Source: Candidatus Woesearchaeota archaeon | GTDB taxonomy: Archaea > Nanobdellota > Nanobdellia > Pacearchaeales > UBA284 | Reading direction: 5' to 3' | Length of the DNA: 36,846 bases | NCBI GenBank assembly: GCA_964481435.1 | Contig: CAYZTH010000002.1 | Coordinates: forward strand, 1 to 36,846 | Notes under the pieces: model-generated | What the model was told of the DNA's origin: nothing | The model's input: the letters and a program-made list of their open reading frames with translations, nothing else | The model's database searches: none | Position numbers and translations under genes: made by a program | Part shown: piece after piece, positions 5,549 through 36,846 of the stretch | How the letters are laid out: every line of letters begins with the position of its first letter | How positions within the stretch are numbered: the first letter of the stretch is position 1

Positions 5549-5569
5549 AGTCAGGAAACATAGGTTATC

Positions 5570-9086: not shown

Positions 9087-9530
9087 ATGCCAAATCCAAA
9101 ACAGACGGATAAGATTTATAGTATTGTTGCATCTGGACCAGTAATCATCAAAGACAATAAAGTCATGCTGGTTGTTCTTGATGATAAAGATCCATTTCTA
9201 AAATTTCCAGGTGGAAAAGTCTTTGAGGGCAAAACACTGAAAGAATCGTGTTTGATTGAAACTAAGATGGAGATTTGCTGTGAAATTGAAATAATCAGGG
9301 AGCTTGAACCAATGATGTTATGGAAGAAGCCACATACTGGCGAGGATATCGCTGTTGTTTTGATTCATTGGTTAGCGAAGCTCAAGGAAGGCCAGATTCC
9401 TAAGAAAGGAAAACATACAAAAGAGATTTTATGGATTGATTCTAATAAAGAAACATGGAAAGGATATGAACTTGGACCAAATGTCAAATATTTTCTAGAG
9501 AAGCTGAAGAAAGAGGGGATAATCAAATAA
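9087..9530 (+). CDS. Nudix-fold protein with degenerate Nudix box
   Basis: FPGGKVFEGKTLKESCLIETKMEICCEIE aligns by eye with GGx5Ex7REUxEExGU, but several catalytic positions are replaced. Confidence 0.5.
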   Translation: MPNPKQTDKIYSIVASGPVIIKDNKVMLVVLDDKDPFLKFPGGKVFEGKTLKESCLIETKMEICCEIEIIRELEPMMLWKKPHTGEDIAVVLIHWLAKLKEGQIPKKGKHTKEILWIDSNKETWKGYELGPNVKYFLEKLKKEGIIK

Positions 9531-9542
9531 ATAATATTCAAA

Positions 9543-13651: not shown

Positions 13652-14315
13652 AATGAAAGAAATAAAAACTAAAGTTGAAAGTGAGATTCCTAACCAAGAG
13701 CAAGTCTGGGATGAGATTGCACCTAACTGGAAAGAAGTCAGGCAAGTCCCGATTAAAGAGGCTGTTGATTTTCTAAAAGATGCTGAAGGAAATATTCTTG
13801 ATTTGGGGTGTGGAAGCGGGAGAAACTTTGTAAAATCAAAAGGCACAATTTATGGAGTAGATTTTTCTAAAAGAATGTTGACCTATGCTAAATTAAATGC
13901 AAAAAAGAAAGACATCAAAGCAATTTTGATAAAAACAGAAGGACATAAACTTCCTTTTGAGGATAATTTTTTTGATAGAGCAATTTTTATTGCCACCTTG
14001 CACTGTATTACTTCAAAAGAAAAGAGAGAACAGGCACTGCGAGAATTATTAAGAGTAATGAAACCAAAATCAAGAGCCTTGATAACTGTTTGGAACAAAG
14101 CCCAACCAAAATTTAAGGAAGAAAAGAAAGAGGTGCTGCGCGGTTGGTCGTTCAATGGAGAAAGGTTTGAGAGATATTATTACCTATATGATAAAAAAGA
14201 ACTAGTTAGTTTAGTGAATAAAGTTGGATTTAAAATAATCAAAGTTGTGGACAAAGAGATTCAAGAAAGTCCGACTTTCAAAGGGAATATTTTGGTTTAC
14301 GTTGAGAAGAGTTAA
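13641..14315 (+). CDS. class I SAM-dependent methyltransferase
   Basis: Motif I is ILDLGCGSGRN, post-I is YGVDFS, and LRVMKPKSRALI is also present. The start was chosen at ATG 13641; alternatives are 13653 and the track's 13566. Confidence 0.85.
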   Translation: MRIKMKEIKTKVESEIPNQEQVWDEIAPNWKEVRQVPIKEAVDFLKDAEGNILDLGCGSGRNFVKSKGTIYGVDFSKRMLTYAKLNAKKKDIKAILIKTEGHKLPFEDNFFDRAIFIATLHCITSKEKREQALRELLRVMKPKSRALITVWNKAQPKFKEEKKEVLRGWSFNGERFERYYYLYDKKELVSLVNKVGFKIIKVVDKEIQESPTFKGNILVYVEKS

Positions 14316-21307: not shown

Positions 21308-21724
21308 ATGAAATCGTCAATATCGGAAAAAGTAAAAGATAGAATTTATGATGTTCGAGAATATATTGAAGAAAAAGCAATATATCCTGCACTTCTTTTA
21401 GTCTCCCCCCTGGTGGTAATGCTAGCAGCCACCACGGAGTCTAAAAGAATAAAATACAGTCTAAGAGAAGCGCTGAATCTTTATGCGGGTATTGCATTAC
21501 CCCTTTTGATTGCAGGTTCTTTTATCTATTATAAATTAAATCAAGCAATTAAAACAGATAATCCCTGGATACGAGCAGGGATGGTTGGATTTTCTTTGGG
21601 GGTTAGTGGTCCCGTAACAATTCCCGGATATGCTCTTGGATCTTATACTGCAAGAAAGTTGAACCGGCAAAGATTAGAAAGAGCAAATAAACTAGAACAA
21701 ATAACTTCTAATTATTCAACATAA
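21308..21724 (+). CDS. hypothetical membrane protein
   Basis: 138-aa ORF with 3-4 hydrophobic segments. GVSGPVTIPGYALGSY near the C-terminus. Confidence 0.45.
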   Translation: MKSSISEKVKDRIYDVREYIEEKAIYPALLLVSPLVVMLAATTESKRIKYSLREALNLYAGIALPLLIAGSFIYYKLNQAIKTDNPWIRAGMVGFSLGVSGPVTIPGYALGSYTARKLNRQRLERANKLEQITSNYST

Positions 21725-24405
21725 ATAGCTGGCTTGCCAGGCTTGGCTTTGCTTGCTTTGTTCTGGGGATCTACCTTGTTCTTATCATTGACTGCAAAAA
21801 CTTCAAGAGGTAAGTTAAGGGATTTTTGAATACTTTCTTTTGATTGTTTGTATGTGTTAAGTTCATTTGGAATTGTATATAAAAATACTTTTTTTGGAAC
21901 TTGTTTCTTTTCAGCTAACATCTTAAGGATATTACTTATGTCCTGAATTGTCTTACCAACTGCTTGCTCTTGCTTTTCAAGATTCTCATTTATCTTGCTT
22001 TCTTGTACTTTTGGCCAGGACTCAAGAGATAGGAATGTCTTATTTCCTAAATTGTGCCAGAGCTCTTCTGTGATGTGAGGACAGAAAGGGTGAAAAAGCT
22101 TGAGAAGAATTTCGTAGTTCTCTCTTTTTATCGATTCAGATAAGGAGTCTATACAGCCCATAATCGGGATAATTGCTTTGGGATACTCAAAATTCTCAAT
22201 ATTCTCTGAGACTTTCTTTATTGCTGAATGAATCTTGTTCTCTTGTGAAGGATTGGTTTCATTCTTTATTTTTTCTTTTAATCGGATTAATCTATTTATT
22301 ATCCTAAAACTTCCTTCAACTCCTTCATTTGTCCATTCCATTGGCTTGTCTGGAGAAGAGACAAAAGTCAAGAATAATCTTGCCGTATCTATTCCATACT
22401 TTTCAGAGATTTCTGTCTGGAAAACAACATTGCCCTGGCTTTTTGACATCTTTTTGCCGTCTTTGTAGACTACGCCTTGATTAAATAATCGTGTAAATGG
22501 CTCGTCAAAATTCACCATCTTTATATCTTTCAAGAACTTAGTCAAGAATCTTGCATACATCAGATGACCAACAGCATGCTCTATTCCTCCGATGTATTGA
22601 TCGACAGGCATCCAGTAATTCACTTTTTTTGAATCAAATGGCTTTTCTGAGTTCTTATTATCACAGTATCTTAGATAGTACCAGCTACTATCCATAAAAC
22701 CGCCGAGGGTGTCTGTCTCTCTTCTCGCTTTTCCGTGGCATTTAGGACAGGTCGTATTAACAAAATCTTTATTAGATGATAGGGGATTCCCTGTGACTTT
22801 GAAATCAACTTTTTCTGGAAGCAATACTGGAAGTTTATCTTCTGGAACAGGCACAATGCCACATTTATCGCAGTATACAATTGGAATTGGTGTTCCCCAG
22901 TATCTCTGTCTTGAAATAAGCCAGTCTCTTAACTTGTAGTTTGTTGTTTTCTTTCCGAGTTTGTTCTTTTCAAGCCAATCTGCCATCTTAGGCAAAGCTT
23001 CTTGGTTATTCATCCCTGAAAATTTTCCAGAATCAAATAAAATGCCATTATCTGTATATGCTTCTTTGAAATCTTTTGGGTTAATTGATTTTCCATCTTT
23101 GCTTATAACAAATTTTAATGGAATTTTGTATTTTCGCGCAAATCTAAAATCTCTCTTATCATGCGCATCACACATCACAACTCCGGTTCCGTACATCAAA
23201 GCAAAATTAGAAACATAAACCGGAATTTCTTCATTAGTTGCGGGATTAATAACATACTTTCCGATAAATATTCCTTCTTTTTCTTTTTCTTCGTTTATTC
23301 TATCTTCTATTTTTTCTTTTAAAATCTTTTTAATGAAATCTTTGACTGGTTTTTCGTATTTGGTTCCTTTTATTAATTCGTCAACCAGTGGGCTTTCTGG
23401 CGCAATAGCAATAAAAGTTACTGAGAAGATAGTATCGCATCTTGTTGTAAATGCTTCTAAAACTTTTTTTGAATCTTTTAATTTGAAAAATATGTTAACC
23501 CCTTCACTTTTTCCAATCCAATTCCTTTGCATGGTCTTTATCTTATCGGACCACTGAATCTTATCGAGGTCATCGAGAAGACGGTCAGTATACTTTGTTA
23601 TCTTGAAGAACCACTGTTCCATCTCTTTTTGTATAACTTCATTTCCACAGCGCCAGCATTTCCCTTTTTCAGCTTCTTCATTAGCAAGAACAGATTGACA
23701 GTGTTCACAGTAGTTTACAGGTGCTTTTTTTCGATAAGCTAATCCATGCTCTAAAAGTTTTAAGAAGAGATATTGATTCCATTTGTAATACTCTGGTTGG
23801 TGAGACATTATCAGTCTAGACCAATCATAGCTATTCCCTAGGGCCTTTTGATACTCTATTATCTTCTTTATTGCATCTTCTGCGTATTTTTTAGGATGAA
23901 TCCCTTGCTTTTTTGCCGCATTCTCTGCAGGAAGGCCAAAAGAATCATAACCTACTGGATAGAGTATGTTAAAACCCTGCATCCTCCTGTATCTTGCAAA
24001 GACATCTCCGATGGTATAATTCCTCACATGACCAACATGCAAGAAAGAAGCAGAGGGGTAAGCATACATTTCAAGAACATAGAATTTTTTCTTTTTATTG
24101 TCTTCTTTGACCTGGAAGATTTGAGATTTTTCCCAAGAATCTTGCCACTTTTTCTCTATACTTGAGAAATTTATTGAAGCATTAGGGGGTGAATTTTGAG
24201 ATAAGTGCAATGAAGACCTTATTTTTTCTTGTACTTTTTTTATATCTTTTTTAAAAGATTCGGGAAAATCAGATGCAATAAATTTACAATTTTCACATAT
24301 CAAAAAAGCATTTCCGCCATATAAACTAATCTTTGTACAACCACATCTCGGGCAAAACTTCATCATATTTTCTGTTTTCTTCGTTCCCTTTTTCATGTTC
24401 AACAT
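21712..24405 (-). CDS. leuS: leucyl-tRNA synthetase, bacterial-type, with N-terminal zinc-ribbon extension
   Basis: HVGHVRNY (HIGH), GYDSFGLPAENAA (bacterial-type), CP1 editing motifs TTRCDT and GTGVVMCDAHDKRDFRFA, KMSKSQGN (KMSKS). The first about 80 aa contain CPRCG...CENC. Confidence 0.95.
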   Translation of the reverse strand: MLNMKKGTKKTENMMKFCPRCGCTKISLYGGNAFLICENCKFIASDFPESFKKDIKKVQEKIRSSLHLSQNSPPNASINFSSIEKKWQDSWEKSQIFQVKEDNKKKKFYVLEMYAYPSASFLHVGHVRNYTIGDVFARYRRMQGFNILYPVGYDSFGLPAENAAKKQGIHPKKYAEDAIKKIIEYQKALGNSYDWSRLIMSHQPEYYKWNQYLFLKLLEHGLAYRKKAPVNYCEHCQSVLANEEAEKGKCWRCGNEVIQKEMEQWFFKITKYTDRLLDDLDKIQWSDKIKTMQRNWIGKSEGVNIFFKLKDSKKVLEAFTTRCDTIFSVTFIAIAPESPLVDELIKGTKYEKPVKDFIKKILKEKIEDRINEEKEKEGIFIGKYVINPATNEEIPVYVSNFALMYGTGVVMCDAHDKRDFRFARKYKIPLKFVISKDGKSINPKDFKEAYTDNGILFDSGKFSGMNNQEALPKMADWLEKNKLGKKTTNYKLRDWLISRQRYWGTPIPIVYCDKCGIVPVPEDKLPVLLPEKVDFKVTGNPLSSNKDFVNTTCPKCHGKARRETDTLGGFMDSSWYYLRYCDNKNSEKPFDSKKVNYWMPVDQYIGGIEHAVGHLMYARFLTKFLKDIKMVNFDEPFTRLFNQGVVYKDGKKMSKSQGNVVFQTEISEKYGIDTARLFLTFVSSPDKPMEWTNEGVEGSFRIINRLIRLKEKIKNETNPSQENKIHSAIKKVSENIENFEYPKAIIPIMGCIDSLSESIKRENYEILLKLFHPFCPHITEELWHNLGNKTFLSLESWPKVQESKINENLEKQEQAVGKTIQDISNILKMLAEKKQVPKKVFLYTIPNELNTYKQSKESIQKSLNLPLEVFAVNDKNKVDPQNKASKAKPGKPAIYVE

Positions 24406-24548: not shown

Positions 24549-25451
24549 ATGAAAAAGAGTGTGAATGTGTCCCTAGTGATTGCCGTGATGTTTATTCTTG
24601 TTGGGCTTTTATTTGTAAATGGGTGCGGCAAACCCGCAGACACTTACACAGAAGATCAGAATCAAACTTATGGAGATGAAAATCCGAATCAACAACAACC
24701 AACAGAAACTCCAAAAGAATACAAGACCTCTGATAAGTTATCCACAATAACACTAACAAGAGACCTTATCGATTCTAGTGGCGAACTCTCTCAACATGTT
24801 TCTTTCAAACTCTCGGGATATATGAAAGAAATTGATCCTACTTCAAATGACCAGACGCGATATTCAGATCGCGCCTATACTCTCGACCAAGGTAGAATAG
24901 ATTGGAGCATACAAGAACTGGAGATTCTTGAAGGGAATAATTGCAGATCAACAACAACAATCGGGGGCGAAGGAAATGATAGCCTATCTGCATATAATGT
25001 ATACTATAACCGGGATGGCCCTCAAAAAGATGATAATGGAAATATCGTCCATCTAAAAGCATATAATATTAAGATATCTTATATTGAACATGGATTAAAT
25101 GAACAAGGAAAATCAGAACTTAAGATCCTTGGGTCACTTTTAATGCCAGTTATGAATACTTATGTCGAAACTAAAAAAACAACAAATGCGTTATGTGGGG
25201 GCACTGATTCTTTAATGGATAATGCGATTCTTCAAATTCCTATAAAATTCATCGGCTTTAACCCAGATCAAAAAACCTTTTCAAACTCATTTGAAGCTGT
25301 AGAGGGTTATGAAAATCAGATTCAAGGAACAATAACCTCGGGTTATAAAGAAGCTGTATTTGCATACATGACCCCGGTCTTGGTCACAGAAATTCCAATT
25401 CCAGGCAATGAAGCGTCATGGAAAGTTTCATGGAATCTAGAGATGCCATGA
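24549..25451 (+). CDS. secreted lipoprotein-like protein
   Basis: Signal peptide MKKSVNVSLVIAVMFILVGLLFVNGC with a lipobox-like VNG|C, followed by a Q/N/T/P-rich linker. Confidence 0.6.
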   Translation: MKKSVNVSLVIAVMFILVGLLFVNGCGKPADTYTEDQNQTYGDENPNQQQPTETPKEYKTSDKLSTITLTRDLIDSSGELSQHVSFKLSGYMKEIDPTSNDQTRYSDRAYTLDQGRIDWSIQELEILEGNNCRSTTTIGGEGNDSLSAYNVYYNRDGPQKDDNGNIVHLKAYNIKISYIEHGLNEQGKSELKILGSLLMPVMNTYVETKKTTNALCGGTDSLMDNAILQIPIKFIGFNPDQKTFSNSFEAVEGYENQIQGTITSGYKEAVFAYMTPVLVTEIPIPGNEASWKVSWNLEMP

Positions 25452-25468: not shown

Positions 25469-25476
25469 TTTATAAA
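25469..25476 (+). promoter_or_regulatory. BRE/TATA-like box of the Cys-rich protein gene
   Basis: TAAGA-TTTATAAA-CAAA, 33 nt upstream of ATG 25510. Confidence 0.45.
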
Positions 25477-25509: not shown

Positions 25510-26601
25510 ATGGTGGATCCAATAACAACAGCGGCCACAGCAAAGACTGCTAAAAAGGTAAAAGACGTCACGCAGAAACCTGTAAAAAGCGCAGGAGATG
25601 TAGCGTTTAAGGTATTTCTCTTGATACTATTGGCAATAATTACTATTCTTCTTATAGTTATAATTGCATTTATTATATTCGGCTGGGTCTTTCCATCATC
25701 TAATAATACGTTTATTCCTTACCCTGGTGCAGGACCAGGAGAATCAGGTTCATACTCCTCTGGTTATAATTATACAAATTATATTAACGCCCACTATCCG
25801 GGACCAGGGAGTCTTGGGGGGGAGTGTTACTGGGCCTATATCTGCCCCGGTGTTCCACCGGCTCCAACTTGCGACGATTGCACAGACGAGAATCGTTCAT
25901 GCTATAATAATTCAGAGTGTTGCTCTGGATGCTGTGAACAGTTCAGCATAAATTATCCGATTGGGGATATCCCTGGCCAGACTGCTTTCGTTGGGGGAAT
26001 ATGCAAACCAATTGAAAGATGCCAGCAACAGTGCAAGAATTATGCTCAGACATGCACAAACACAAGCCAGTGTTGTGATGGATATTGCTGTAAGAGCATG
26101 GGCGGAACATACAAAGAGTGTAGACCTAATTTAGAATGTAATTCGTGCACAGAAAATACTCAACTCTGTTCGAGTTCAAGTGAATGCTGTTCAGGATGCT
26201 GTAATGATGGATTATGCAGCCTTGAAACTCAGTGCTGCCATGAAGAAACTCAAACATGCTCGGGCTCTTCTGATTGCTGTTATGGTCTTGATTGTATAGA
26301 CGGACTATGCCAACAACCCGAATGCAAGAACTATGCAACCCAGTGCGAAACTAATGATGACTGCTGTTCAGGATGTTGTAAGAACATGGGAGGAACATAC
26401 AAAGAGTGCAGGCTTGAAAATGAATGCTCGGCTAGCTGCAATCCAATTGGAGGTTCTTGCCTTATAGGGGCTGACTGCTGTTCAACAGTATGCCTCGGAA
26501 ATAATACCTGCGGCTGTATTCAAGGAGGATATTCTTGCCCCGTAGCAGGTTCATGTTGTTCTCCTTACGAATGCGTAACAGGTATGTGTGTAATACCTTA
26601 A
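25510..26601 (+). CDS. N-terminally anchored cysteine-rich surface protein (seven CX6CX5CC modules)
   Basis: Lys-rich N-terminus, TM helix (aa about 35-60), a G/S/Y-rich spacer, then 53 Cys between aa 106 and 360 with a repeated spacing pattern. Confidence 0.8.
   Translation: MVDPITTAATAKTAKKVKDVTQKPVKSAGDVAFKVFLLILLAIITILLIVIIAFIIFGWVFPSSNNTFIPYPGAGPGESGSYSSGYNYTNYINAHYPGPGSLGGECYWAYICPGVPPAPTCDDCTDENRSCYNNSECCSGCCEQFSINYPIGDIPGQTAFVGGICKPIERCQQQCKNYAQTCTNTSQCCDGYCCKSMGGTYKECRPNLECNSCTENTQLCSSSSECCSGCCNDGLCSLETQCCHEETQTCSGSSDCCYGLDCIDGLCQQPECKNYATQCETNDDCCSGCCKNMGGTYKECRLENECSASCNPIGGSCLIGADCCSTVCLGNNTCGCIQGGYSCPVAGSCCSPYECVTGMCVIP
26032..26139 (+). repeat. intragenic duplicated module (copy A) of the Cys-rich gene
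   Basis: Encodes CKNYAQTCTNTSQCCDGYCCKSMGGTYKECRPNLEC. It is a diverged direct repeat of 26323-26427 at both DNA and protein level. Confidence 0.6.
26323..26427 (+). repeat. intragenic duplicated module (copy B) of the Cys-rich gene
   Basis: Encodes CKNYATQCETNDDCCSGCCKNMGGTYKECRLENEC. Confidence 0.6.
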
Positions 26602-26701: not shown

Positions 26702-29700
26702 ATGGCGAATACCTGGCAATTTTTTTTAACAGTTGTATCTGTAGCCTTATTATTATTCATGCTGATTCCACTTGTTTCGGCAAATGTATATATCCCGGAT
26801 ATTTATTTTACTCTTCCTGACAGTGTCTTTTATGCAAATGAGAACATTCAATTAAAAGGCTATGTTTATTTTACCAATATAAGCGATAACGGAACATACT
26901 ACTCCAATAATACGGTATTAGTTGGTCAAGAAATTAACCTCAGTATTTGGGATGAAAGCAGAACACTAAATGCTTCTTATAACTTGACTACAGATTCTAA
27001 TGGTTCATTTTATTCAAGATCTAATTTTTATTTATCTTCCCCTTTAGTTAGCGCCCCCCTTGTTCCTGGAAATTATTATATAAGGGCGAGCGTTGTTCTT
27101 AATAATACAAATAATAGCAATTCAACGTACTATTCTGAAATTGAATTTAGTGTTGCAAATCAAACTATGGATTTTATAAGAGTAAGCTCTGACAAGGCAA
27201 GATATAATCCCGGAAATGGAGTCATAGTTAGTGCAGAAGCTGTAAAAAAAGTAGGAGACAGAATATTGTATATCTCAAATGTTTCTATATCTGGAAATCT
27301 AAGAGATTCTGCAAAAGAGGTCTTGGAGGCTTTTTCATGCACAACTGGGAGCAATGGAAAGTGCACAACAACAGTTACAGCGCCAGACTATGGAGAATAT
27401 ATCTTAGAGGTTAATAATTTCAAGGCATTTAGTTCATTCCAAGTTGTACCATTTTCTTTTATACTATCTGTTAAAGATGAAAATGGAAAATCTATAAAAA
27501 ATGTTTTTTCGCGAGGGGAAAAGGCAAAAATTGAAGTTAAAGCGAATAATGCAAGTTCTTCAGATACATATCGTTTCATTGGATATATAAAAGACTCTTC
27601 TGGAAGAATAATTGAAAATATCTCAACGGTGGTGCTAAATTCAAATAACTCTTTTGCAAACAGCTATGAGGTTAGTATTGACTCTGATTATAATTATGGA
27701 AGCTACTCGGTCTACGTTGATGTTACAAAAGATGGAGATGGGACTATCAGTTCTCTAACTTCTTTTAAAATTGAAGATTGGAGTCTTTCTTTGAGCAAAA
27801 AATCATCGCGTTCTGGGTTCGAATATGGGTACAGCGCATTTCCAAATTCTACTTTATACTTTGAACTTCTTCCGTTGTATAGAATAAATGGATCAATAGT
27901 GCCCAACATAAGCTTCTCTTCATTCACCGCATTGCTCAAAGATGAATTAAATAATGTTATAAATAGTTCTAATGTTTCTTGGAATTCGAGTTGTGGAACT
28001 TCTGGATGTTACGAATTCTCTTTAAGAGCTCCTGAGAACTATGGAAAATACTCTCTTTATGCTACCCTAGTTTATAGTAATAATGTTCAGACAATTAGCA
28101 GAGCAATCAATATAATAAATACTGTAATCTCTGCTCAATCAACTGATAAAAACGGCAATATAAAAGAATTATTTGGGACAAATGAGTTTGTTTATCTGTC
28201 TTTTTTAACATATAATCTAACTAATCCTAGTGTAAATCTAAGTGATGCTGAATTATTTATTGTCCAATATATGAATGGAACTGAAATTTCATATTCAAAT
28301 GCCAGTTCTTTTGAAGAAGTCAATGGAACAGGTTATAGATGGTCTTGGAATTCTAGCCTGCAAAGAATAAAGATGGACACTCTAAAAATGGGAGGGTTAT
28401 ATAATATCTATATCTTTGGAAATAACAGGTCAGCAGGAGCCGAAGCTAAATTTATTATAAATCCATATGACGCATGTATCTCTCCAAAAAATTCTTTAGA
28501 AACTAACAGTTATTATGTGTGGCAATTCAAGACATCAGATACTATTTATTTTGAAATTAAGATAAGCCAAGCAAACAACCCATTGGGCAAAGCAACTGCA
28601 CTAAATCTATCCTCAACCTCAAATTCAAGCACCAATGGAACACAAGGCGGACTTGGGGCTGCATGCGCAATGGATACTACAACAAAACAAGTTGTTACAA
28701 ATGCGACACTAACAATTGATGAAGTAAAAAATTCAGAATCTGGAGTCATACAGTCTTTTAATTCATCTGGGTCGAGCTGCACTCCAAAGGATAATCTGGG
28801 AACCTATATTTGCACTCTTAAACCCTTGTCAAAATGGGATTCTGGACAAATACTTGTTAAGGTTGATATTGAAGGACAAGATGGTTCAACCAGCACGGTT
28901 TATGGTATGTTTGAAGCACGAGCATTTTATTTATACGGATGGAGCCAATCATGGCAGAACAGCCCGACCTCTAATATAACTTTACAAATACAAATATATG
29001 AAGCAGGAAGCAATTGGTGGGGCAGCGGGAGCGGCATAAGCGGCACAGTAACTGTAACTAAAGTTGAATATCAAGGAGGCTCTGGAGAGTGGATATGGCC
29101 CCCAATTGATTCAGGGTATAATGTTTCTTTATTAAATTCAACTTCAGTAAGTGGAAGTACCGGAACTATGACATTAGATTCTTCGTATGCTTCTGGCGGA
29201 AGATGGAAAACTGGAAATTATAGAGCAGTCCTTAAAGCGACAACTTCCTCGGGAGACACAGACTATGGTTATGCTTGGTTTGGAATCAGAATGTGGGATG
29301 TTTATGGCTCTCCGATAGAGTGCACTGATTCTTCATGCAATTATAAGAGTTATTTTAATACAAGAGAAAATATAACTTTATTTATTCAAGTTAATAAACC
29401 GGGAATGTGGGGAAGTTACAATCAAGATTTGAGTGATAATGTCAGCGTAAGCGTTAAGAAAATCCAAGATTGCAGAACCTGGCCTTGTAAAGAACTAAAT
29501 CAGACAGATTATAGCGCAAATAGCATAAATGTCAGCAGAACAAGCGGGTACTATTGGAGTGGCAATTTAACTTCTCTTTCAAATTATATAATATATATAA
29601 ACTCAACTTCAGGAATTTGGGATGCGGGTTCATACAATGTTATCCTTGATGTTAAAGGAATCAATGAAAGTGATAGTGGTTCAGCTTGGTTTAATTCAAT

Positions 29701-31645
29701 TGCATTTTATGTTGAAACGCAGCCAGTTAATTCTAATGGGACTTCTTATAAGTACAATATAAAACCCGGAGAAACAGCTTATATCAATGTAACAACAACT
29801 AAAAATTATAAATATTCAAGTTCTGGAACAAGGTATAATTTCTCAGATTATGTAAATACGAGTATTGTTAATATAACTCTGTCAAGATGGGATCAAAATT
29901 CTCAAAGTAGTGTCAAATATAACTTACAGTCTCTAAATGTCGCTCCTTTACAAGTAAATGGAACCCAGATATTAAATATTACTTACACTAACGGGAATTG
30001 GCCTTCTGGATACTATTGGGGAGAACTTTTAATGAACAACTCTGATGGAGAGAATTCAAGAGGATGGCTATACTTTAATGTACAACCATTTAGAGTTGAT
30101 ACTTCTATAAGTTCATATAATGTGGACTATGATAGTTGTGCTAATGCTAGCTTGAATGCGAGAGAGCCTGATTGGAATTACTATTCTTTACTTTATGGAA
30201 ATTATTCTGTTACCGGGGTATATGAAGATATATGGTCTATGTCGGGAGTTCAAAGAACAACCTATACTAATTATACCCTCAATGGAGGGGATAATACAAC
30301 TGAATTCAATGCCACAACGTATATAAATATCTGTCCAAACGAGGGAGGCTGGGGAAGCGGAAGTTGGGGAGGATATCACTACTTGAGTCTTATTGTTTCA
30401 AATGCTTCTGACCTGGCATCCAATCAAACAGGGTGGTTGTATTTTAGGACAATTCCCTTCATAACAAGCTGGAACAGTGGTAGTAATATAAGAAAAACTT
30501 CCTCGAAAACAGCAACTGTAACCCTAACAAGAGTTTTAGGAGGAAATGCATCTGGAAATTTAACTAAACTCTATCAATGGAGATATGATGCCTACAAAAA
30601 TGGAGAAGAAGAGTATATATACAAAACGAATGATAGTTGTTGGTCAAATGTTTCGAGCGCCTGCACAATAAATGGTGCTGCAAATATTACAATTTTTCCT
30701 CCATCATATGGATGGAAGTCTGGATACAATTATATTTATTCTGTATGGACGAATGTAAACGGTAGCACAAGGTTCGAGGATTATAATGGAATTTATTTCC
30801 AAGCAAGAGATATTTATTATGGGACATTCTCTAATTACGATCAAAATAACAGTTATAAATATAATTTTGCTCAAGATGAAAATCTAACTATAAAAGTGGT
30901 TGTAAGAGATCCTGATGATAACCTAGCAAATGTCAATATCACAAAGGTCGAATATAGCACTAATTATTATACTTATAGTGATGCTACATATACTACAACT
31001 AATTTAAGCTATGGAACACACCTCATAACTATGACAAATTCAGGAAATTGGTCTTTGGGATATTATTATATCAGAATAACTGTAACTGGTTCAGAAGGAA
31101 GTGTATTATTTTCTGATACTGGAAATCTTCGAGTTAAAGATATGGTCGCTCCAACACTAAATATAACATATCCCATAAACAATGTGACCTATTCAAATAA
31201 TTCTTTGATATTTAACATTACTCTCTCTGAAAATGGTATTTGTGAGTCAACGCTTTATAACTACTATAATTTCTATAATTCGTTTTGTTATAATTGGAAT
31301 GCAACCAATTCATCAAATCAAACAAAAGAAGCATGTAATACTACAAAGTATAATTACAGCGGAAACACCTATTATTATGAATGGCTTTCTTACCACTATC
31401 ACTCTCTTTACTCTGATAATGGGAGTGCATATTGTTATAGATCTAGTTCTTGTTCTGGCTCAAATGACGCTTTAATAGCAAGAGCAAGAGTCTTTACTTC
31501 CGGAACATCATCAACAAGCCAAAGCTTTACTCTTAACACCACTAATTGGACAGAACAAAATTATGGAGTATATATTAATTGCTATGATAATGATTGGAAT
31601 TATGGCCATGAATTAGTTACTGTCGCTGTAAACAACCCTGTTTAA
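26702..31645 (+). CDS. giant secreted surface glycoprotein (S-layer/adhesin-like), no membrane anchor
   Basis: 1647-aa uninterrupted ORF. Signal peptide MANTWQFFLTVVSVALLLFMLIPLVSA. N/S/T/Y-rich, with about 80 N-x-S/T sequons by hand count. No C-terminal TM helix. Confidence 0.85.
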   Translation: MANTWQFFLTVVSVALLLFMLIPLVSANVYIPDIYFTLPDSVFYANENIQLKGYVYFTNISDNGTYYSNNTVLVGQEINLSIWDESRTLNASYNLTTDSNGSFYSRSNFYLSSPLVSAPLVPGNYYIRASVVLNNTNNSNSTYYSEIEFSVANQTMDFIRVSSDKARYNPGNGVIVSAEAVKKVGDRILYISNVSISGNLRDSAKEVLEAFSCTTGSNGKCTTTVTAPDYGEYILEVNNFKAFSSFQVVPFSFILSVKDENGKSIKNVFSRGEKAKIEVKANNASSSDTYRFIGYIKDSSGRIIENISTVVLNSNNSFANSYEVSIDSDYNYGSYSVYVDVTKDGDGTISSLTSFKIEDWSLSLSKKSSRSGFEYGYSAFPNSTLYFELLPLYRINGSIVPNISFSSFTALLKDELNNVINSSNVSWNSSCGTSGCYEFSLRAPENYGKYSLYATLVYSNNVQTISRAINIINTVISAQSTDKNGNIKELFGTNEFVYLSFLTYNLTNPSVNLSDAELFIVQYMNGTEISYSNASSFEEVNGTGYRWSWNSSLQRIKMDTLKMGGLYNIYIFGNNRSAGAEAKFIINPYDACISPKNSLETNSYYVWQFKTSDTIYFEIKISQANNPLGKATALNLSSTSNSSTNGTQGGLGAACAMDTTTKQVVTNATLTIDEVKNSESGVIQSFNSSGSSCTPKDNLGTYICTLKPLSKWDSGQILVKVDIEGQDGSTSTVYGMFEARAFYLYGWSQSWQNSPTSNITLQIQIYEAGSNWWGSGSGISGTVTVTKVEYQGGSGEWIWPPIDSGYNVSLLNSTSVSGSTGTMTLDSSYASGGRWKTGNYRAVLKATTSSGDTDYGYAWFGIRMWDVYGSPIECTDSSCNYKSYFNTRENITLFIQVNKPGMWGSYNQDLSDNVSVSVKKIQDCRTWPCKELNQTDYSANSINVSRTSGYYWSGNLTSLSNYIIYINSTSGIWDAGSYNVILDVKGINESDSGSAWFNSIAFYVETQPVNSNGTSYKYNIKPGETAYINVTTTKNYKYSSSGTRYNFSDYVNTSIVNITLSRWDQNSQSSVKYNLQSLNVAPLQVNGTQILNITYTNGNWPSGYYWGELLMNNSDGENSRGWLYFNVQPFRVDTSISSYNVDYDSCANASLNAREPDWNYYSLLYGNYSVTGVYEDIWSMSGVQRTTYTNYTLNGGDNTTEFNATTYINICPNEGGWGSGSWGGYHYLSLIVSNASDLASNQTGWLYFRTIPFITSWNSGSNIRKTSSKTATVTLTRVLGGNASGNLTKLYQWRYDAYKNGEEEYIYKTNDSCWSNVSSACTINGAANITIFPPSYGWKSGYNYIYSVWTNVNGSTRFEDYNGIYFQARDIYYGTFSNYDQNNSYKYNFAQDENLTIKVVVRDPDDNLANVNITKVEYSTNYYTYSDATYTTTNLSYGTHLITMTNSGNWSLGYYYIRITVTGSEGSVLFSDTGNLRVKDMVAPTLNITYPINNVTYSNNSLIFNITLSENGICESTLYNYYNFYNSFCYNWNATNSSNQTKEACNTTKYNYSGNTYYYEWLSYHYHSLYSDNGSAYCYRSSSCSGSNDALIARARVFTSGTSSTSQSFTLNTTNWTEQNYGVYINCYDNDWNYGHELVTVAVNNPV

Positions 31646-31648: not shown

Positions 31649-32713
31649 ATGAGAAAAACAAAGGAAAAATTAATAGCGGGTAGAAATTCAATCTTGTTCT
31701 TTATTATTTTATTTTTATTCTTAATTAATCTTTGTTTGGTTTATGCTTCAGCTGATTTCCAAGTAACTAGTTTTTCGTGTTCTCCAGAAGAAATTGTTGT
31801 GAGCAGCAGTTTTTCTTGTACAGCCCAGATTAAAAACTCAGGGGATAACGGAAGTTTGGGCGTTGTTACACTTTATCCTGATTCTAGTGCCTGGCTTGAA
31901 GAGTCTAACTATCCCCAAGCATATGGGTCTAGTATTCAGGGTGGGGAGACTATATCTATTGCATTCTCTGAATTAAGAGCAACTAAATCAGGAACAAATG
32001 GTTTTTCAAAGATTATGCTTGATTCGGTTACAGACAATTATGTCTCAGATAATGGGATCAGTGTGAATACTATTAATGTTATTGCTGTTTTGGAGGTTTC
32101 TGATTCTTCTGTTTCTATTGGAGATATCTTTGATGTCATTGTAGAAATTACTGCAGGCGGGAGTATCGATGTTGTTCTTAAATTTGAAGGAAATGCTGGC
32201 TGTGATTTAGGAAGCCAATCCAGTCAAAAAACAATAACTGGAATGACTGATGGAAGTAAACAGTCGAGAACATGGACCGCGGTTACGCAAGCAGATGATG
32301 TTGCTTGTTCATTTACAATTACTGCTACTGCAACAGGAACAGGAGGTATTGCTTCAAAACAAGATAGTTCTTCAGAAACACTAACCTGTTCAGACTGCCC
32401 TGTTGAAGAAGATGAAGGAGGCGGAGGAGGAGGGAGCGGTGGAGGAGTAGCCTCAGCAAATGAAACTGATGCAACTAATCAGACAAACCAGAATCCAGAA
32501 TTGAATAATAACACAAATATTCTGAATAATCAAAGCACTACCAATAAAACTGGTGAGAATAAAGAGGGAAAAGGGAATAACTTAACCTGGTTGTGGTGGG
32601 CTATCTGCGTTGCTGTTGTGGCTGTATTCACTGTTTTGGCTGTTGTTCTTACAAGAAAAGAGAAAGATCCTTATCATAAGAATTACAAGTACAAAAGACC
32701 TAACAAGTACTAA
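31649..32713 (+). CDS. C-terminally anchored beta-sandwich (CARDB-like) surface protein
   Basis: Signal/anchor ILFFIILFLFLINLCLVYASA. VTSFSCSPEEIVVSSSFSCTAQIKNSGD is a CARDB-like strand pattern. Then a Gly6-SGGG linker, an N/T/Q-rich stalk, the TM helix WLWWAICVAVVAVFTVLAVVL and a short basic tail. It starts 3 nt after the giant gene's stop. Confidence 0.75.
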   Translation: MRKTKEKLIAGRNSILFFIILFLFLINLCLVYASADFQVTSFSCSPEEIVVSSSFSCTAQIKNSGDNGSLGVVTLYPDSSAWLEESNYPQAYGSSIQGGETISIAFSELRATKSGTNGFSKIMLDSVTDNYVSDNGISVNTINVIAVLEVSDSSVSIGDIFDVIVEITAGGSIDVVLKFEGNAGCDLGSQSSQKTITGMTDGSKQSRTWTAVTQADDVACSFTITATATGTGGIASKQDSSSETLTCSDCPVEEDEGGGGGGSGGGVASANETDATNQTNQNPELNNNTNILNNQSTTNKTGENKEGKGNNLTWLWWAICVAVVAVFTVLAVVLTRKEKDPYHKNYKYKRPNKY

Positions 32714-32716: not shown

Positions 32717-33496
32717 TTATACTCTAAACAGTTCTGTTGCTTTATCTCTTTCAGAAACATGGAATTCTGCTTCGAGATCTTTTCTTTCTTTAAGCAAAGA
32801 TTTCATTGTCTTTAGGGCAACAGGGGGTGTGTTATTTACTGCACTCAGATGTGATAGAACAATTTTCTTTAATTTTGTTCGCGCATGTTCCAATAAACAA
32901 ATGGAAGACTGAAAATTTGAGAGATGGCCTAGCTTGCTTGAAATCCTATCTTTTAAGAATTTGGGGTAGGGCCCATCTTGAAGCATGCCATAATCGTGGT
33001 TTGCTTCTATGAATAAAAAGTCTGATTCAGATGCATACTCTGACACATTCTTACATACTTGGCCTATGTCGGTCATTACTGAGACTGTCTTTACCTCGTT
33101 TCTGGAGAGTATTGAGTAAGAAACCGGATTCAAACCATCGTGAAATTTTGGAAAAGTTTGGACATCAAAGCCATTTATCTTTACTGTTTCATTATTTTTT
33201 ATAAAATTTAACATTTCTTGGTTTGAACAAATAAAGGTCTCTTTAGATGTTTCTTTTGTCAGAAAAATTGGGACATTAAAATTCCTTGCAAAGACATCAA
33301 CACCTTTAATGTGATCTGAATGCTCGTGAGTCAAGAAAATAGCTTTAACATTCTCTGGACTTCGCTTTATATGTTTTAATCTCTCGCAGGCAAGCTTACA
33401 GGTTATTCCGAGGTCTATCAGAATTCCTTGCTTGTCGTCATTCTCTATATAGAATGAATTGCCTGAACTTCCCGAAGCTAAAGCACATGCCCTCAT
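32717..33496 (-). CDS. MBL-fold metallo-hydrolase
   Basis: MRACALASGSSGNSFYIE..., HxHxDH motif LTHEHSDHIKG. The start is set at the ATG forming an ATGA overlap with the upstream stop; the track's longer start is 33526. Confidence 0.85.
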   Translation of the reverse strand: MRACALASGSSGNSFYIENDDKQGILIDLGITCKLACERLKHIKRSPENVKAIFLTHEHSDHIKGVDVFARNFNVPIFLTKETSKETFICSNQEMLNFIKNNETVKINGFDVQTFPKFHDGLNPVSYSILSRNEVKTVSVMTDIGQVCKNVSEYASESDFLFIEANHDYGMLQDGPYPKFLKDRISSKLGHLSNFQSSICLLEHARTKLKKIVLSHLSAVNNTPPVALKTMKSLLKERKDLEAEFHVSERDKATELFRV

Positions 33497-33969
33497 GCTA
33501 ATCTCCCCGGGGTCTTTTTTACCCATCCGACATTCTTCTTTAACCAGTGATTATAGGTCTCTTTATCAAACCTTTTTATTGATTTCAAAGCGACTTTCTT
33601 TGAATCTTTGATAAATTTTTTATCTAAATACTTTGAAGCAGGACACCCCGTATCTAAGAGATAAATTATCTTGTCTTTTGAATAGATTGCTTTGACAGGA
33701 TAGCATAGACAATCCAAAGGTTTATTCTCTTCAATTTTGCACTTGCCCTCTTTTAAAAAGATACAATCCTGGCTCCTTTTTCCTTCCTTTAAGATAAAAT
33801 AATTCTTTCCTGATTTCAATTTGATTTCTTTTACATAGGCCCCAATCTTCTTTGCTTCTTTGTAATCTAGTATTGGGGACCCAAAGAATTTTCCTGCTTT
33901 ACAGCACTTTGATTTGCAAAAAATACAGTATTTTAATAAAGATAAATCCCCCATTTTTATCACCAACAT
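33493..33969 (-). CDS. YkgJ-family (CxxCxxCC) cysteine-cluster protein
   Basis: CIFCKSKCC near the N-terminus, plus a second Cys group (DCIFLKEGKCKI...LDCLCYP). Confidence 0.65.
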   Translation of the reverse strand: MLVIKMGDLSLLKYCIFCKSKCCKAGKFFGSPILDYKEAKKIGAYVKEIKLKSGKNYFILKEGKRSQDCIFLKEGKCKIEENKPLDCLCYPVKAIYSKDKIIYLLDTGCPASKYLDKKFIKDSKKVALKSIKRFDKETYNHWLKKNVGWVKKTPGRLA

Positions 33970-34009: not shown

Positions 34010-36846
34010 TCATCTGTTCTTTATCAACTTTTTAACTTTATCCTGTTCTTTGTGATGCAGAATATCTAGGATTCCATCTTCATCCTTGTGCAACCGGTCT
34101 AGATTACCTTTCAATTTACGGGCAATATTAGTTTCTTCTTCAAATATAGCTTGAACGGAGTTTATCTTGTTCTTTATTTCCATCCTGATTGCTGAATGTC
34201 CTAAGTTCTTGTAATTTTCAGACTTCATCAAAATCTTTTCTTTTTCAACTAGCTTTTTGTATTTTCCAAACCAGTCCGCCATCTCATCCAAGGCCCTCAT
34301 TCTATCTGAGTCGAGACTCTTTATTTTACCTGCTTGAGAATAAGGTATCTTCTTTTTGTCTATCATCTTCCCAATCATCCCAGGACTTATCTTTACCCTA
34401 TCTCTTAATCTTGTTCTTCTATTCAGGCATAATTTTATTCCCCAGCCAGAATTCTTTCTTATTTTATTATTAAACTTCTGAATATTATAAAATGCATCAC
34501 TAGGGTCTTGTCTATTTTTAGTCTTTATATCGCCCAATATGTCCTCTTGTTTCTTCTTAAGGGAGACAAAATTGGTTATTCTCTGGACTACTTTTTCAAG
34601 AGTCAATCTCTTGAGTGGATTATATACGAAAGGGAGTATAATCAGGATTATTGCAATCAAGATAATCAGGTATAATAAACTCCGCCAATTGAATCTTCCC
34701 ATGCAACCGTTATCTGTGCAATCATAACTGATAACCAAAATACCCAGAATCTTTGAATTTGGACTACATCTACAGTCTTTACAGCAGGTTTTGCTTGTTT
34801 CGTCTACGTCACACCGATTATCGCCACATGAAGATCCCCCAACCTGTGCCCCGGCATTTTCTTTGGTTTGATTTGTTTCATTTGATGGAGTCACTGGATT
34901 TGTTTGATTAGTCACATTGGTATTATTCTTTAGAGTTACATCTCCTCCGCCGTCCCAAAGGATTGTTGGAGCGACATAATTTATGTTGAATGTCCTATTT
35001 TCAGTTATGTTTGTCTGGCTAGCAGTATCATTACACCAAACCGCCCACTTATAGTTCTGTGCATCAGAAATTCCAGGAACAGTTATGTTCAGCCAGGTAT
35101 CATTTGTGTATGAATCATTGGTATAGTTCGCTCCCCATGTTCCGGTCGTGTTTGTCCAGAGCTGAATCATGGAAACAGCAACATTGTCATAACATTTCAT
35201 ATCAAATGTGACTGAAGAACTTGTTGAATTGTAACTATCTGCAGGATTGGCCCCCTGGGCTGCGACTGGATTTGTTGAATCTCCCCCTCCTGCTGAGGCA
35301 GTCACTAGCGGAACAAGTATGCTGAAGCTCGTCGCATTTCCAGAGATAGTTTTATTCTCTATATCAACTAAGCTGTAACTGACATTCTTCCAGTCTGTTG
35401 AATTATAGTCTAGCATAACCATCAAGCTTTCATTTTTTCCTACGGGAATATCCTCTGCAGAATAGGAGATATTAAGGAAAAGCCAGTTGCTTCCTGTCAA
35501 GTTTGTTACATTGACATATTTTGAAATATTCGAATAATCTACAGGGTCGCTTGGAGGAATTTCAACGCCATCTATTTCAAAGTTACCTGAGTAAGTATAA
35601 CTTATCTTAGTCGGGAAGTACTCGCCGATTGTCTCGTTCATGAAGATATTATCGTGGCTGTAATCGCCTAGCACAATGTCCTTTGCATTTTGGGCATTTA
35701 GTACGTTATTGTTAAAAGTGTTGTTGCTCGAAGGATCACTACTTGAGCCAGCAAAATAAACAGCCCAACTATCTAATCCACTAGTATTTATGTTATTACT
35801 AGAAACATTGAAGAAAGTAGTTCTGTAAAAATAAATTCCATAACCTCCCCACCCACTGGAGTCACCTAATCCTTCCATTGTTATATTATTATTATTGACA
35901 TGGGAAATCGCCCCACTTGGATTATCGGTCTGTCTGTTATATTCTAAATAAATACCTGTGCTATAATCTCCAGTAACCAGGATGTTATTATTAATAACAC
36001 TTAAATTACCTGCAGAATAATCAATATAAACGCCGTAGTACCAACCCTCGGAAGCAGCAGTAATATTATTATTATGAATACTGCTGTTTGAACTTAATGC
36101 TTGAAGATGTATGCCTGTCTGAACCGCCGTGACATTATTATTATATGCGCTGCATCTGTCAACCATATATAAATCAATTCCGGTTTGAGCCGAGTACACA
36201 TTATTATCAAAAACAGAGTCATTATATAGGGGAGGGTAGCCGTCTATATCTCTTGTCCATAACTCTATGCCTATGCTATTTGCTGATGTTCCATCAACAG
36301 TAATATTATTTCCAAAAATATCATTATTATTTGAACCCCGTTGCATAAGAACCCCATAACTATTGGCTGCACTTCCAGTAGCATGAATCGTGCTATAAGA
36401 GATAAAATTATTACTGCAGTTATAATCCACGATTACTCCGTAACCATCTTTAGTAGTTATATTATTATAAGAAACATTAGTGTTATTCGTGCCATACCCT
36501 AGACTGATTCCCCAGTTAACTCCAATAGAAGTGATATTGTTATTAAAAACTGTTCCATTGCTTGCATTTTTAAAATAGATTCCTCCGGTACTTGTGTGTG
36601 GAACACTTGTGTTTATATTGCAGTTTTTCACGGTTGTGTTTGTTGAATTAGAATAAACCCCATGACCTGTAGCGGAAGAGGCATAATTAATTGTAAAACT
36701 GTTGCAGTCAATAATTACATCTGCCCCAGTTACATTAAAGCAAGTTCCTGCTGAATTAATGCTAGTATTCAAAGTGTAAATTCCGGGGGAGGTTATATTT
36801 GCACACCAGCCGATATCTTCTGCAGATGCTAATTGGGTTAAAGAAA
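34010..36846 (-). CDS. single-pass surface protein with a parallel beta-helix (PbH1/NosD-like) ectodomain and a 203-aa cytoplasmic tail; 5'-partial
   Basis: At least 10 coils of the type (F/Y/H/I)NNN(I/V)T..., a Big-like domain, an N/T-rich stalk, a CGDNRCDVDETSKTCCKDC motif and the TM helix LLYLIILIAIILIILPFVY. The track's start (36772) is a TTG and the frame stays open to the window end. Confidence 0.85.
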   Translation of the reverse strand, partial: SLTQLASAEDIGWCANITSPGIYTLNTSINSAGTCFNVTGADVIIDCNSFTINYASSATGHGVYSNSTNTTVKNCNINTSVPHTSTGGIYFKNASNGTVFNNNITSIGVNWGISLGYGTNNTNVSYNNITTKDGYGVIVDYNCSNNFISYSTIHATGSAANSYGVLMQRGSNNNDIFGNNITVDGTSANSIGIELWTRDIDGYPPLYNDSVFDNNVYSAQTGIDLYMVDRCSAYNNNVTAVQTGIHLQALSSNSSIHNNNITAASEGWYYGVYIDYSAGNLSVINNNILVTGDYSTGIYLEYNRQTDNPSGAISHVNNNNITMEGLGDSSGWGGYGIYFYRTTFFNVSSNNINTSGLDSWAVYFAGSSSDPSSNNTFNNNVLNAQNAKDIVLGDYSHDNIFMNETIGEYFPTKISYTYSGNFEIDGVEIPPSDPVDYSNISKYVNVTNLTGSNWLFLNISYSAEDIPVGKNESLMVMLDYNSTDWKNVSYSLVDIENKTISGNATSFSILVPLVTASAGGGDSTNPVAAQGANPADSYNSTSSSVTFDMKCYDNVAVSMIQLWTNTTGTWGANYTNDSYTNDTWLNITVPGISDAQNYKWAVWCNDTASQTNITENRTFNINYVAPTILWDGGGDVTLKNNTNVTNQTNPVTPSNETNQTKENAGAQVGGSSCGDNRCDVDETSKTCCKDCRCSPNSKILGILVISYDCTDNGCMGRFNWRSLLYLIILIAIILIILPFVYNPLKRLTLEKVVQRITNFVSLKKKQEDILGDIKTKNRQDPSDAFYNIQKFNNKIRKNSGWGIKLCLNRRTRLRDRVKISPGMIGKMIDKKKIPYSQAGKIKSLDSDRMRALDEMADWFGKYKKLVEKEKILMKSENYKNLGHSAIRMEIKNKINSVQAIFEEETNIARKLKGNLDRLHKDEDGILDILHHKEQDKVKKLIKNR

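Follow-up and report, generated by a model that had tools for sequence, protein, structure and literature searches.

Within a 36,846-nucleotide (nt) stretch from a Candidatus Woesearchaeota archaeon (GenBank assembly GCA_964481435.1, contig CAYZTH010000002.1; hereafter the window, by which we mean the whole stretch analysed), the open reading frame (ORF) at 25510-26601 on the forward strand encodes a protein of 363 amino acids (aa), 53 of them cysteines, in which a basic stub and one transmembrane helix are followed by seven consecutive cysteine modules. We consider it probable that these modules form an extracellular tandem array of knottin domains, that is, of the inhibitor cystine knot (ICK) fold. 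That the array works as a stalk with a binding tip is put forward more tentatively, and for the combined reading, an anchored knottin-array surface stalk presenting a conserved binding tip, we judge the chances to be about even. Both the ICK fold and tandem ICK proteins are known already; an archaeal, membrane-anchored version of seven to nine modules with a conserved partner gene appears to be undescribed.

Architecture of the protein and its cysteine modules

By searching the protein with the regular expression C.{6}C.{5}CC we found exactly seven matches, at aa 124, 175, 213, 243, 272, 310 and 336 (nt 25879, 26032, 26146, 26236, 26323, 26437 and 26515). In 20,000 composition-preserving shuffles of the ectodomain, which kept its 17% cysteine, the motif occurred on average 0.24 times and never more than four times. 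All 53 cysteines lie between C106 and C360, a span of 255 aa, and aa 124-360 (nt 25879-26589) hold 50 of them. An earlier interpretation made from the letters alone (the sequence-only reading) had listed the same seven modules, the same 53 cysteines in 255 aa (although the nucleotide span it flagged is the one that holds 50), a basic stub with one transmembrane helix, and exact C-C-CC-C-C frameworks in modules 4, 6 and 7; all of these stand. The features of the gene are as follows.

25469..25476, +: possible archaeal TATA box, TTTATAAA, about 35 nt 5' of the ATG (read by eye, low weight)
25510..26601, +: whole ORF, stop codon included, for an N-terminally anchored protein of 363 aa that crosses the membrane once
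25510..25608, +: cytoplasmic basic stub, aa 1-33, MVDPITTAATAKTAKKVKD..., with 7 K/R against 3 D/E
25609..25683, +: transmembrane signal-anchor helix, aa 34-58 (from hydrophobicity, an AlphaFold helix and family-wide presence)
25684..25812, +: extracellular spacer, aa 59-101, rich in G, S, Y, N and P and poorly conserved (from identity and model confidence)
25813..25878, +: membrane-proximal motif GECYWAYICPGVPPAPTCDD, aa 102-123, three cysteines (from conservation)
25879..26031, +: module 1, eight cysteines, 22-residue insert between cysteines 6 and 7
26032..26145, +: module 2, eight cysteines, closest paralogue module 5
26146..26235, +: module 3, eight cysteines, the last directly abutting the first cysteine of module 4
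26236..26322, +: module 4, six cysteines, canonical C-C-CC-C-C, spacing 6-5-0-4-4
26323..26436, +: module 5, eight cysteines, calcin-like core plus one extra cysteine pair
26437..26514, +: module 6, six cysteines, spacing 6-5-0-3-5, positionally orthologous across the family
26515..26598, +: module 7, six cysteines, spacing 6-5-0-4-4, distal tip, best conserved and most hydrophobic/aromatic

The four eight-cysteine modules follow C-x6-C-x5-CC-x2/3-CC-xn-C-x5-C, a C-C-CC-CC-C-C pattern known as conotoxin framework XI. They are homologous to the six-cysteine modules (hhalign probability 97%), and in the alignment the sixth and seventh cysteines of the longer form correspond to cysteines 5 and 6 of the knottin core, so that the fifth and eighth would be a pair added to an ICK core. 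Across 115 modules from 19 family proteins the cysteine counts fit either six or eight, with 6-5-0-4-4 the commonest spacing; twenty counts of seven are adjacent pairs in which our script split two modules at a CC junction, and two 14-cysteine segments were taken, uninspected, as unsplit double modules. Extra cysteines have thus been gained in pairs, as is expected for disulfides and is not required of metal ligands.

Modules are 26-51 aa long, and the linkers between them, counted from the last cysteine of one to the first of the next, measure only 3, 2, 0, 4, 3 and 1 aa in the window protein (0-6 aa in orthologs), suggesting a near-continuous chain of knots rather than beads on a flexible string. 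The modules are acidic or neutral (net charge -6 to +1), and the hydrophobic and aromatic fraction is 0.29 in module 7 against 0.10-0.20 in the others. In the closest members of the family N-x-S/T sequons are about twice as frequent as shuffling would predict, often as N-x-S right before the CC pair. Histidine is scarce, with two residues in the window ectodomain and 0-4 in the ectodomains of the family.

At the N-terminus, the start of the stub (MVAPI.AAKAAKD) is kept among close homologs in the alignment, and a basic stub with a transmembrane helix is present in all of the approximately 20 relatives that share the architecture. The best 19-residue hydrophobicity window of the membrane segment is 3.65. 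An AlphaFold2 model of the whole protein, built from the single sequence and excluded from the fold search (mean predicted local distance difference test score, pLDDT, 49.6), places a helix at aa 29-59 with pLDDT 79-90, covering the 25-residue hydrophobic segment. From the 33-aa basic stub and this 25-aa helix we judge the N-terminus to be a signal anchor and not a cleaved signal peptide. A type IV pilin-like signal was considered and set aside, as the stubs, read by eye, are long and carry no visible conserved cleavage motif. The spacer that follows is 25% identical to orthologs with 23% gaps, and its pLDDT is below 35. Within the proximal motif (CYxAYICPGVP) residues C106, Y107, Y110 and C112 are invariant in 10 proteins. 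Three cysteines, a C-x5-C and one more (aa 106-124, nt 25825-25881 in the window), precede module 1 in most members, and three is the commonest such count in the family, resulting in odd cysteine totals (53, 59, 59, 59 and 57).

Comparison of the modules with knottins

The window protein itself gave no match in Pfam, NCBIfam, PHROGs or PADLOC beyond Orf78 (E = 0.37), an artefact of the transmembrane helix, in keeping with the earlier remark that the protein belongs to no family that could be named. A described prokaryotic cysteine-rich repeat family with non-knotted connectivity had been given in advance as one finding that would overturn the knottin proposal. The NCBIfam models, which take in the Myxococcus cysteine-rich repeat and other curated prokaryotic families of this kind, gave zero matches for the window protein and for nine relatives.

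Profiles of the modules were more informative. A profile of 30 six-cysteine modules, run against all sequences of the Protein Data Bank (PDB), gave 43 matches, nearly all of them knottins; the others were a few Dickkopf chains and one other small disulfide-rich protein. The list includes the remipede double-ICK toxin Xt3a (E = 8.2e-5), Aca toxin 1 (4.9e-4), the spider double-knot toxin DkTx (6.4e-4), Dickkopf-1 (3.3e-3) and the plant knottin Wrightide R1 (4.5e-3), with many spider toxins following at weaker scores. We recognised no defensins, EGF domains, Kunitz domains, metallothioneins or zinc fingers in it, which argues that the match is not merely an effect of cysteine composition. A second profile, of 30 eight-cysteine modules, matched scorpion calcins (maurocalcin, E = 1.1e-3, and imperacalcin) and again Xt3a. 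No metallothionein or zinc-finger entry was recognisable among the PDB matches of either profile, and the Pfam lists contained no metal-binding family. At the level of whole proteins, the family member P0012 passes the Pfam gathering scores of Toxin_12, Conotoxin_I2 and Dickkopf_N, and looser relatives pass those of Conotoxin_I2 or Dickkopf_N; among these proteins the scores are 31.8 bits against 21 for Toxin_12, 30.1 against 27 for Conotoxin_I2 and 39 against 25 for Dickkopf_N.

We also modelled modules 4-7 (aa 236-363) with AlphaFold2 from an alignment of seven orthologous sequences. The mean pLDDT was 76.6, reaching 84-88 in module 7, and each module is predicted to have a short helix or turn where the CC pair lies and a beta-hairpin at its end. 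When this model was searched with Foldseek against 350,542 PDB chains, the top 50 matches were almost all knottins, with template-modelling scores (TM-scores, normalised to target length) of 0.56-0.80 and probabilities up to 0.99. Xt3a was aligned over 73 columns across two modules (TM-score 0.56, root-mean-square deviation (rmsd) 3.5 Å, probability 0.99), maurocalcin over 33 columns (0.69, 1.9 Å, 0.98) and conotoxin GXIA over 28 columns (0.78, 0.7 Å, 0.99); hanatoxin, atracotoxins and squash trypsin inhibitors are also in the list. Taken together, the profile matches, the Pfam scores of relatives and the Foldseek list agree with the knottin-like character first proposed for the modules, and we predict that they adopt the ICK fold.

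The resemblance is closest to the ICK peptides of the Toxin_12/huwentoxin type, the calcins, the O-superfamily conotoxins and the squash inhibitors, which provide the best profile and Foldseek matches and share with the modules the framework C-x6-C-x5-CC-x3/4-C-x4/5-C, the motif (S/D)CC(S)GL.C and the predicted terminal beta-hairpin. Known knottins, however, come one to a peptide of about 30 aa that is secreted, mostly of eukaryotic origin, usually basic or hydrophobic in character and lacking glycosylation at conserved sequons, whereas the window protein fuses seven modules behind an N-terminal anchor, is archaeal and acidic or polar, and has many N-x-S sequons before its CC pairs. Tandem, independently folded disulfide-rich domains are found in the tandem ICK toxins (Xt3a, DkTx and Hi1a) and in the class of secreted cysteine-rich repeat proteins (SCREPs), and Xt3a is the top match of the window modules both by sequence (8e-5) and by structure. 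These toxins have two modules and a cleaved signal peptide and are soluble and derived from venom; in the window family 7-9 modules follow one another almost without linkers behind a signal anchor, and a partner gene is conserved. SCREPs are defined by at least two tandem disulfide-rich domains, of which the window protein has seven, and by a cleaved signal peptide with a soluble product, in place of which it has its anchor.

Two further likenesses are more distant. Modules 1, 2, 3 and 5 have the cysteine pattern of the I-superfamily conotoxins (framework XI) and several relatives match Conotoxin_I2 (PF17557), but it is only relatives that reach 30 bits, and the window protein has no match; the family lacks a conotoxin signal or propeptide, and its loop from the CC pair to cysteine 7 varies from 4 to 22 aa. 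Relatives match Dickkopf_N (PF04706) at up to 39 bits, and Dkk1 and Dkk2 chains are among the PDB profile matches. Here too the window protein has no match and there is no Wnt-pathway context, and the Foldseek matches to Dkk and colipase are poor (TM-score 0.29-0.42, rmsd 4.3-10 Å) compared to those with knottins (0.65-0.80, 0.7-2 Å).

In the literature, the 2017 KNOTTIN database paper states that archaea still lacked knottins and refers to those of bacteria only as sequences that had not been modelled (PMC5753296), and PredSTP reported no sequential tri-disulfide peptide among archaeal PDB chains (PMC4491269). The SCREP survey reports disulfide-rich repeats in tandem from bacteria and from eukaryotes only, in its words 'two distinct domains of life' (PMC6262176), and ScrepYard notes unrecognisable domains in 69.5% of prokaryotic SCREPs (PMC9885460). 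Beyond the KNOTTIN and SCREP papers, our searches of the literature gave no publication that connects knottins to archaea, to DPANN lineages or to bacteria of the Myxococcus type. Should the fold and the disulfides be confirmed, knottins would be present in the third domain of life, and in a new format of 7-9 units with almost no linker and a membrane anchor.

Relatives, partner gene and evolution of the array

A search of 5.8 billion proteins returned nine homologs (E = 4.5e-62 to 4.2e-6) with the layout of the window protein: a short basic stub, one transmembrane helix, a variable spacer, a G.CY.AY.C motif and 5-9 cysteine modules. A profile search of 1.84 billion cluster representatives raised the number with full architecture to about 20 clusters. 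Among 185,579 species-level genomes two carry a relative, a Candidatus Pacearchaeota metagenome-assembled genome (MAG) from Lac Pavin sediment and a Candidatus Woesearchaeota MAG, which bears out the archaeal origin that had been suspected; one relative, P0156, is labelled Patescibacteria at NCBI under the name 'Dickkopf N-terminal cysteine-rich domain-containing protein'. No relative was found among 2.9 million viral contigs. The 90%-identity cluster of another relative, P0024, mixes 477-aa cysteine-rich proteins with 31-54-aa E. coli DUF1187 fragments and looks like a clustering artefact.

At looser thresholds the clusters matching the family profile number 844 (E <= 1e-3), of which 114 reach E <= 1e-10. 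The 166 proteins retrieved with it have a median of eight loosely defined modules; 112 look high-GC by amino-acid usage and 55 have a lipobox-like N-terminus. Named looser relatives, none of which matches an NCBIfam model, are two Myxococcota MAG proteins (one of 1960 aa) and one insect protein, so that tandem ICK-like arrays are not unique to archaea. Judging by these profile matches, such arrays are a large unnamed class in uncultivated bacteria as well, a pool that may interest knottin-scaffold engineers. The Myxococcota proteins (MEW5853662.1 and MGM0597221.1) share the consensus C...G..C....DCCSG.C..G.C, which the metagenomic bacterial arrays repeat 5-25 times, with family-profile E-values of 1e-10 to 1e-30. 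Unlike the window protein, the bacterial arrays have a lipobox or signal peptide instead of the stub and transmembrane anchor, show high-GC amino-acid usage and are missing both the CYxAYICPGVP motif and the pair of conserved terminal modules; they were not seen with a partner gene. Within this putative class the DPANN proteins are, by sequence, a distinct sub-architecture, set apart by the stub and anchor, the CY.AY.C motif and the two conserved terminal modules, and in the window protein's subfamily alone by a partner gene.

The partner gene (24549..25451, +; 300 aa) ends 58 nt upstream of the cysteine-rich gene on the same strand. Its product has an N-terminal signal with a lipobox-like LFVNGC, a polar linker rich in Q, N, P and T, and a domain of about 240 aa. 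A word-indexed homolog search returned only the protein itself; by BLAST within the fetched loci we found homologs, 38-47% identical, immediately or nearly upstream of the cysteine-rich gene in L001, L002 (a Woesearchaeota contig), L005 (a Pacearchaeota contig) and L015, which with the window makes five lineages. In L016, whose cysteine-rich gene is a near-variant of that of L002, the C-terminal end of a partner-type gene precedes it. Since the cysteine-rich proteins of L001, L002 and L005 are only 30-41% identical to that of the window, the persistence of the pairing suggests that the two proteins work together.

An RNase H-type gene lies between the two genes in L001 (7506-7922, -) and L015 (574-978, -), and the spot seems to be a recurrent insertion site. 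In L010 an RNase H-type gene, together with a reverse transcriptase that stands beside an IS66 transposase, is found at 2767-4198, next to or upstream of the cysteine-rich gene. The partner gene is absent near two relatives (L010 and L017) and in a second subfamily (P0008-P0010 and P0156), in which the cysteine-rich gene sits between LemA (with a small ORF) and a Peptidase_M48 gene (L007/L008 5226-7600, L009 3052-4926, L018 and L019); in L002 LemA is two genes downstream of the cysteine-rich gene (9196-9958). We treat the LemA/Peptidase_M48 adjacency as a weak lead only, because the genomes of the second subfamily are close relatives of one another (LemA identity 72-77%) and LemA is missing from the window.

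We also compared the segments of the window protein with six orthologs at non-cysteine positions. Identity is highest in the distal module 7 (52%), followed by the membrane-proximal motif (45%) and module 4 (39%); it is 20-27% in modules 1-3, 5 and 6, and 25% with many gaps in the spacer. In every close homolog the final two modules are orthologous by position, and the middle of the array varies, giving 7 to 9 modules in total.

The closest paralogue of module 2 is module 5 and vice versa (55% identity at non-cysteine positions), and the sequence-only reading had taken the two for recent duplicates. They are related but not recent: at the DNA level they are 79% identical over 53 nt, and 69 positions agree over the 114-nt modules. 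The wider proposal that the array grows by module duplication holds for the family, though it is not shown for this pair. In the Pacearchaeota homolog of L005 a 163-nt direct repeat with 91% identity recurs 183 nt apart (5212-5557), and its two six-cysteine copies are identical in protein sequence. The spacing of 183 nt equals one di-module of an eight- and a six-cysteine unit, pointing to a recent in-frame tandem duplication.

Possible roles and the surrounding genes

We propose that the protein, from a Pacearchaeota-like DPANN archaeon, would cross the membrane once, from a cytoplasmic N-terminus to an external C-terminus. The basic stub would stay inside, the helix would anchor the chain, and the flexible spacer of about 45 residues would lift the array off the membrane. 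Each of the seven abutting mini-domains is most likely an ICK unit with three disulfides, to which the extra cysteine pair of modules 1, 2, 3 and 5 would add a fourth. Such a chain could form a rod, compact, acidic and polar, that withstands proteases and denaturants and probably carries N-glycans. The middle modules would then serve as a stalk whose length changes as two-module units come and go, and the conserved module 7 as a working tip for adhesion or recognition that contacts a ligand, whether this sits on a host, on a neighbouring cell or on the organism's own envelope. The protein probably acts with the co-encoded, membrane-anchored, lipoprotein-like partner.

A functional analogy may be drawn with Myxococcus TraA, the repeats of which are said to form a stalk below a variable recognition domain; that domain is reportedly not one of the repeats, and the anchor is said to differ from that of the window protein. 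TraA is described as a cell-surface receptor for cell-cell recognition with cysteine-rich repeats (PMC3325183, PMC6626042). It is bacterial and belongs to a different repeat family, as no NCBIfam model matched the window protein, and the likeness goes no further than function.

Several points weigh against an anchored knottin stalk with a binding tip. The window protein lacks a direct Pfam match, and the best PDB sequence E-value, 8e-5, comes from a cysteine-biased profile. All Foldseek E-values are 0.058 or higher; this is expected of 30-residue domains, and it is the uniform list with low rmsd, rather than any single E-value, that supports the fold. We infer the knotted disulfide pairing, in which I-IV and II-V make a ring that III-VI threads, from the low-rmsd superposition on solved knottins and from the paired gain of cysteines. 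The relative orientation of the modules is uncertain in the model (predicted TM-score 0.39), and so is the rod shape. Given the odd total of 53, at least one cysteine near the proximal CYxAYICPGVP motif must be unpaired within the chain, and could be free or take part in an intermolecular bond such as that of a covalent dimer. The DPANN group of this protein is expected to live in oxygen-free habitats. One homolog comes from a lake-sediment MAG, and if the organisms are anoxic extracellular disulfides are not guaranteed; no thiol oxidase was seen among the gene annotations of the window. The array raises the question of how about 25 extracellular disulfides would be formed in a single protein when the organism has a reduced genome and is possibly anaerobic. 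As to function, the partner protein gives no match in Pfam or the PDB and so no recognisable fold; all the evidence on structure comes from computation.

The closest solved structures include channel-active toxins (the bivalent Xt3a and DkTx, and the calcins) and squash trypsin inhibitors, and the modules could themselves be the active agents, making the protein a membrane-tethered multivalent effector that binds and modulates host membrane channels or blocks host or environmental proteases with high avidity, and is not mainly a stalk. DPANN archaea depend on physical contact with a host, which would suit such an agent, as would the avidity that multivalency provides (ScrepYard, PMC9885460). 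However, the modules are acidic or neutral and, except for the tip, poor in hydrophobic residues, unlike gating modifiers that partition into membranes or the basic calcins; the weakly conserved middle modules, variable in number, suit a spacer better than seven specific binders; and no inhibitor reactive-loop motif was identified. We regard an effector of this kind as unlikely.

A bolder proposal would make the array a DPANN host-interaction organ, a multivalent venom-like surface binder that grips or gates a host envelope protein or channel where the two cells touch, with the lipoprotein as co-factor. A (S/D)CCSGL.C signature is common to DPANN, Myxococcota and animal toxins, and as a corollary the ICK fold, instead of being a eukaryotic invention, would go back to an ancient surface module of prokaryotes from which animal venom peptides later arose. 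We hold this to be a long shot. DPANN biology gains from the family a small, expressible surface protein with a conserved partner, whose possible part in contact with hosts is open to experiment.

For proteins like that of the window, the main alternative is the one reached in a 2026 survey of archaeal 'dark' domains, where small eight-cysteine domains were interpreted as probable metal binders (PMC13607799): the cysteines would coordinate metals, in the manner of metallothioneins or of zinc or iron-sulfur sites, or buffer thiols, instead of forming disulfides. The high cysteine content of the ectodomain and the CC and C-x2-CC motifs, found in metallothioneins too, would fit, and free thiolates would be favoured if the habitat is anoxic. 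Against this stand the rigid spacing that matches the ICK framework, the gain of extra cysteines in pairs, the near absence of histidine, and the aromatic residues and predicted beta-hairpins; moreover the profile and fold searches returned disulfide-rich knottins with no recognisable metallothionein or zinc finger, families that are missing from the Pfam lists as well. We therefore find a metal-binding or thiol-buffering array quite improbable.

Eukaryotic knottins often derive from multi-domain precursors, and the modules are autonomous duplicating units, so that cleavage between them might free single knottin peptides (antimicrobials or signals) as in plant multi-knottin and cyclotide precursors. 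The linkers of 0-4 aa, with two junctions reading C-C or C-G-C, are too short to hold a processing site, the module sequences show no evident dibasic or Asn/Asp cleavage motif that recurs, and the conserved N-terminal anchor and proximal motif suggest retention on the cell, all of which makes a polyprotein precursor highly improbable. A chance ORF or low-complexity artefact, to which the missing Pfam match and the lack of expression data might point, is effectively refuted by homologs down to E = 4.5e-62 that align over the full length with invariant cysteines, by the identical 363-aa protein assembled independently in at least four metagenome samples, and by the conserved gene order. Samples with the exact gene are ENA ERZ27248961, JGI 3300028298, SRR8437247 and SRR8437217.

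Elsewhere in the window, housekeeping genes for seryl-, alanyl- and leucyl-tRNA synthetases (SerRS, AlaRS and LeuRS) and glutamate dehydrogenase, a TrmB regulator and a weak pilin match fit a cellular archaeal genome; a scan of the contig for tRNAs and Rfam families found none. The pilin match (E = 2.7e-4, below the gathering score) is to an archaeal type IV pilin N-terminus in the first of three consecutive ORFs of 150-180 aa at 3235-4818 (+), which could be a small pilin-like gene cluster.

Downstream of the cysteine-rich gene, 26702-31645 (+) encodes a secreted-looking protein of 1647 aa with 81 N-x-S/T sequons, 22 cysteines and no Pfam domain, and 3 nt after it 31649-32713 (+) encodes a 354-aa protein with an N-terminal hydrophobic segment. 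One possible reading of the pair is a giant, glycosylated protein of the surface or S-layer type accompanied by a smaller one. We considered them as parts of the system and rejected them: they accompany the cysteine-rich gene in four assemblies of the same population and in no other lineages. A large surface protein of about 920 aa of the Beta_helix/NosD-like type, with 46 N-glycosylation sequons, is encoded at 34010-36772 (-), making this stretch of the contig rich in envelope genes. Between them, at 32717-33526 (-), and likewise in L011 (9899-10678), lies a gene for a metallo-beta-lactamase-fold protein that matches the Pfam families Anti-Pycsar_Apyc1 (cyclic-nucleotide-degrading anti-defence) and Lactamase_B; the former match may reflect merely the shared fold.

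The LeuRS gene (21712-24405, -) encodes an N-terminal zinc-ribbon-like extension of about 80 aa (CPRCGC...CENC) and the PF13603 editing domain, which we take to be the bacterial-type form, here in an apparently archaeal genome. Three ORFs at 13043-13651 (+), 13400-13846 (-) and 13566-14315 (+) overlap one another. The 249-aa methyltransferase ORF among them has as its listed start a TTG that falls 86 nt within the 202-aa ORF before it, and its true start is probably further downstream.

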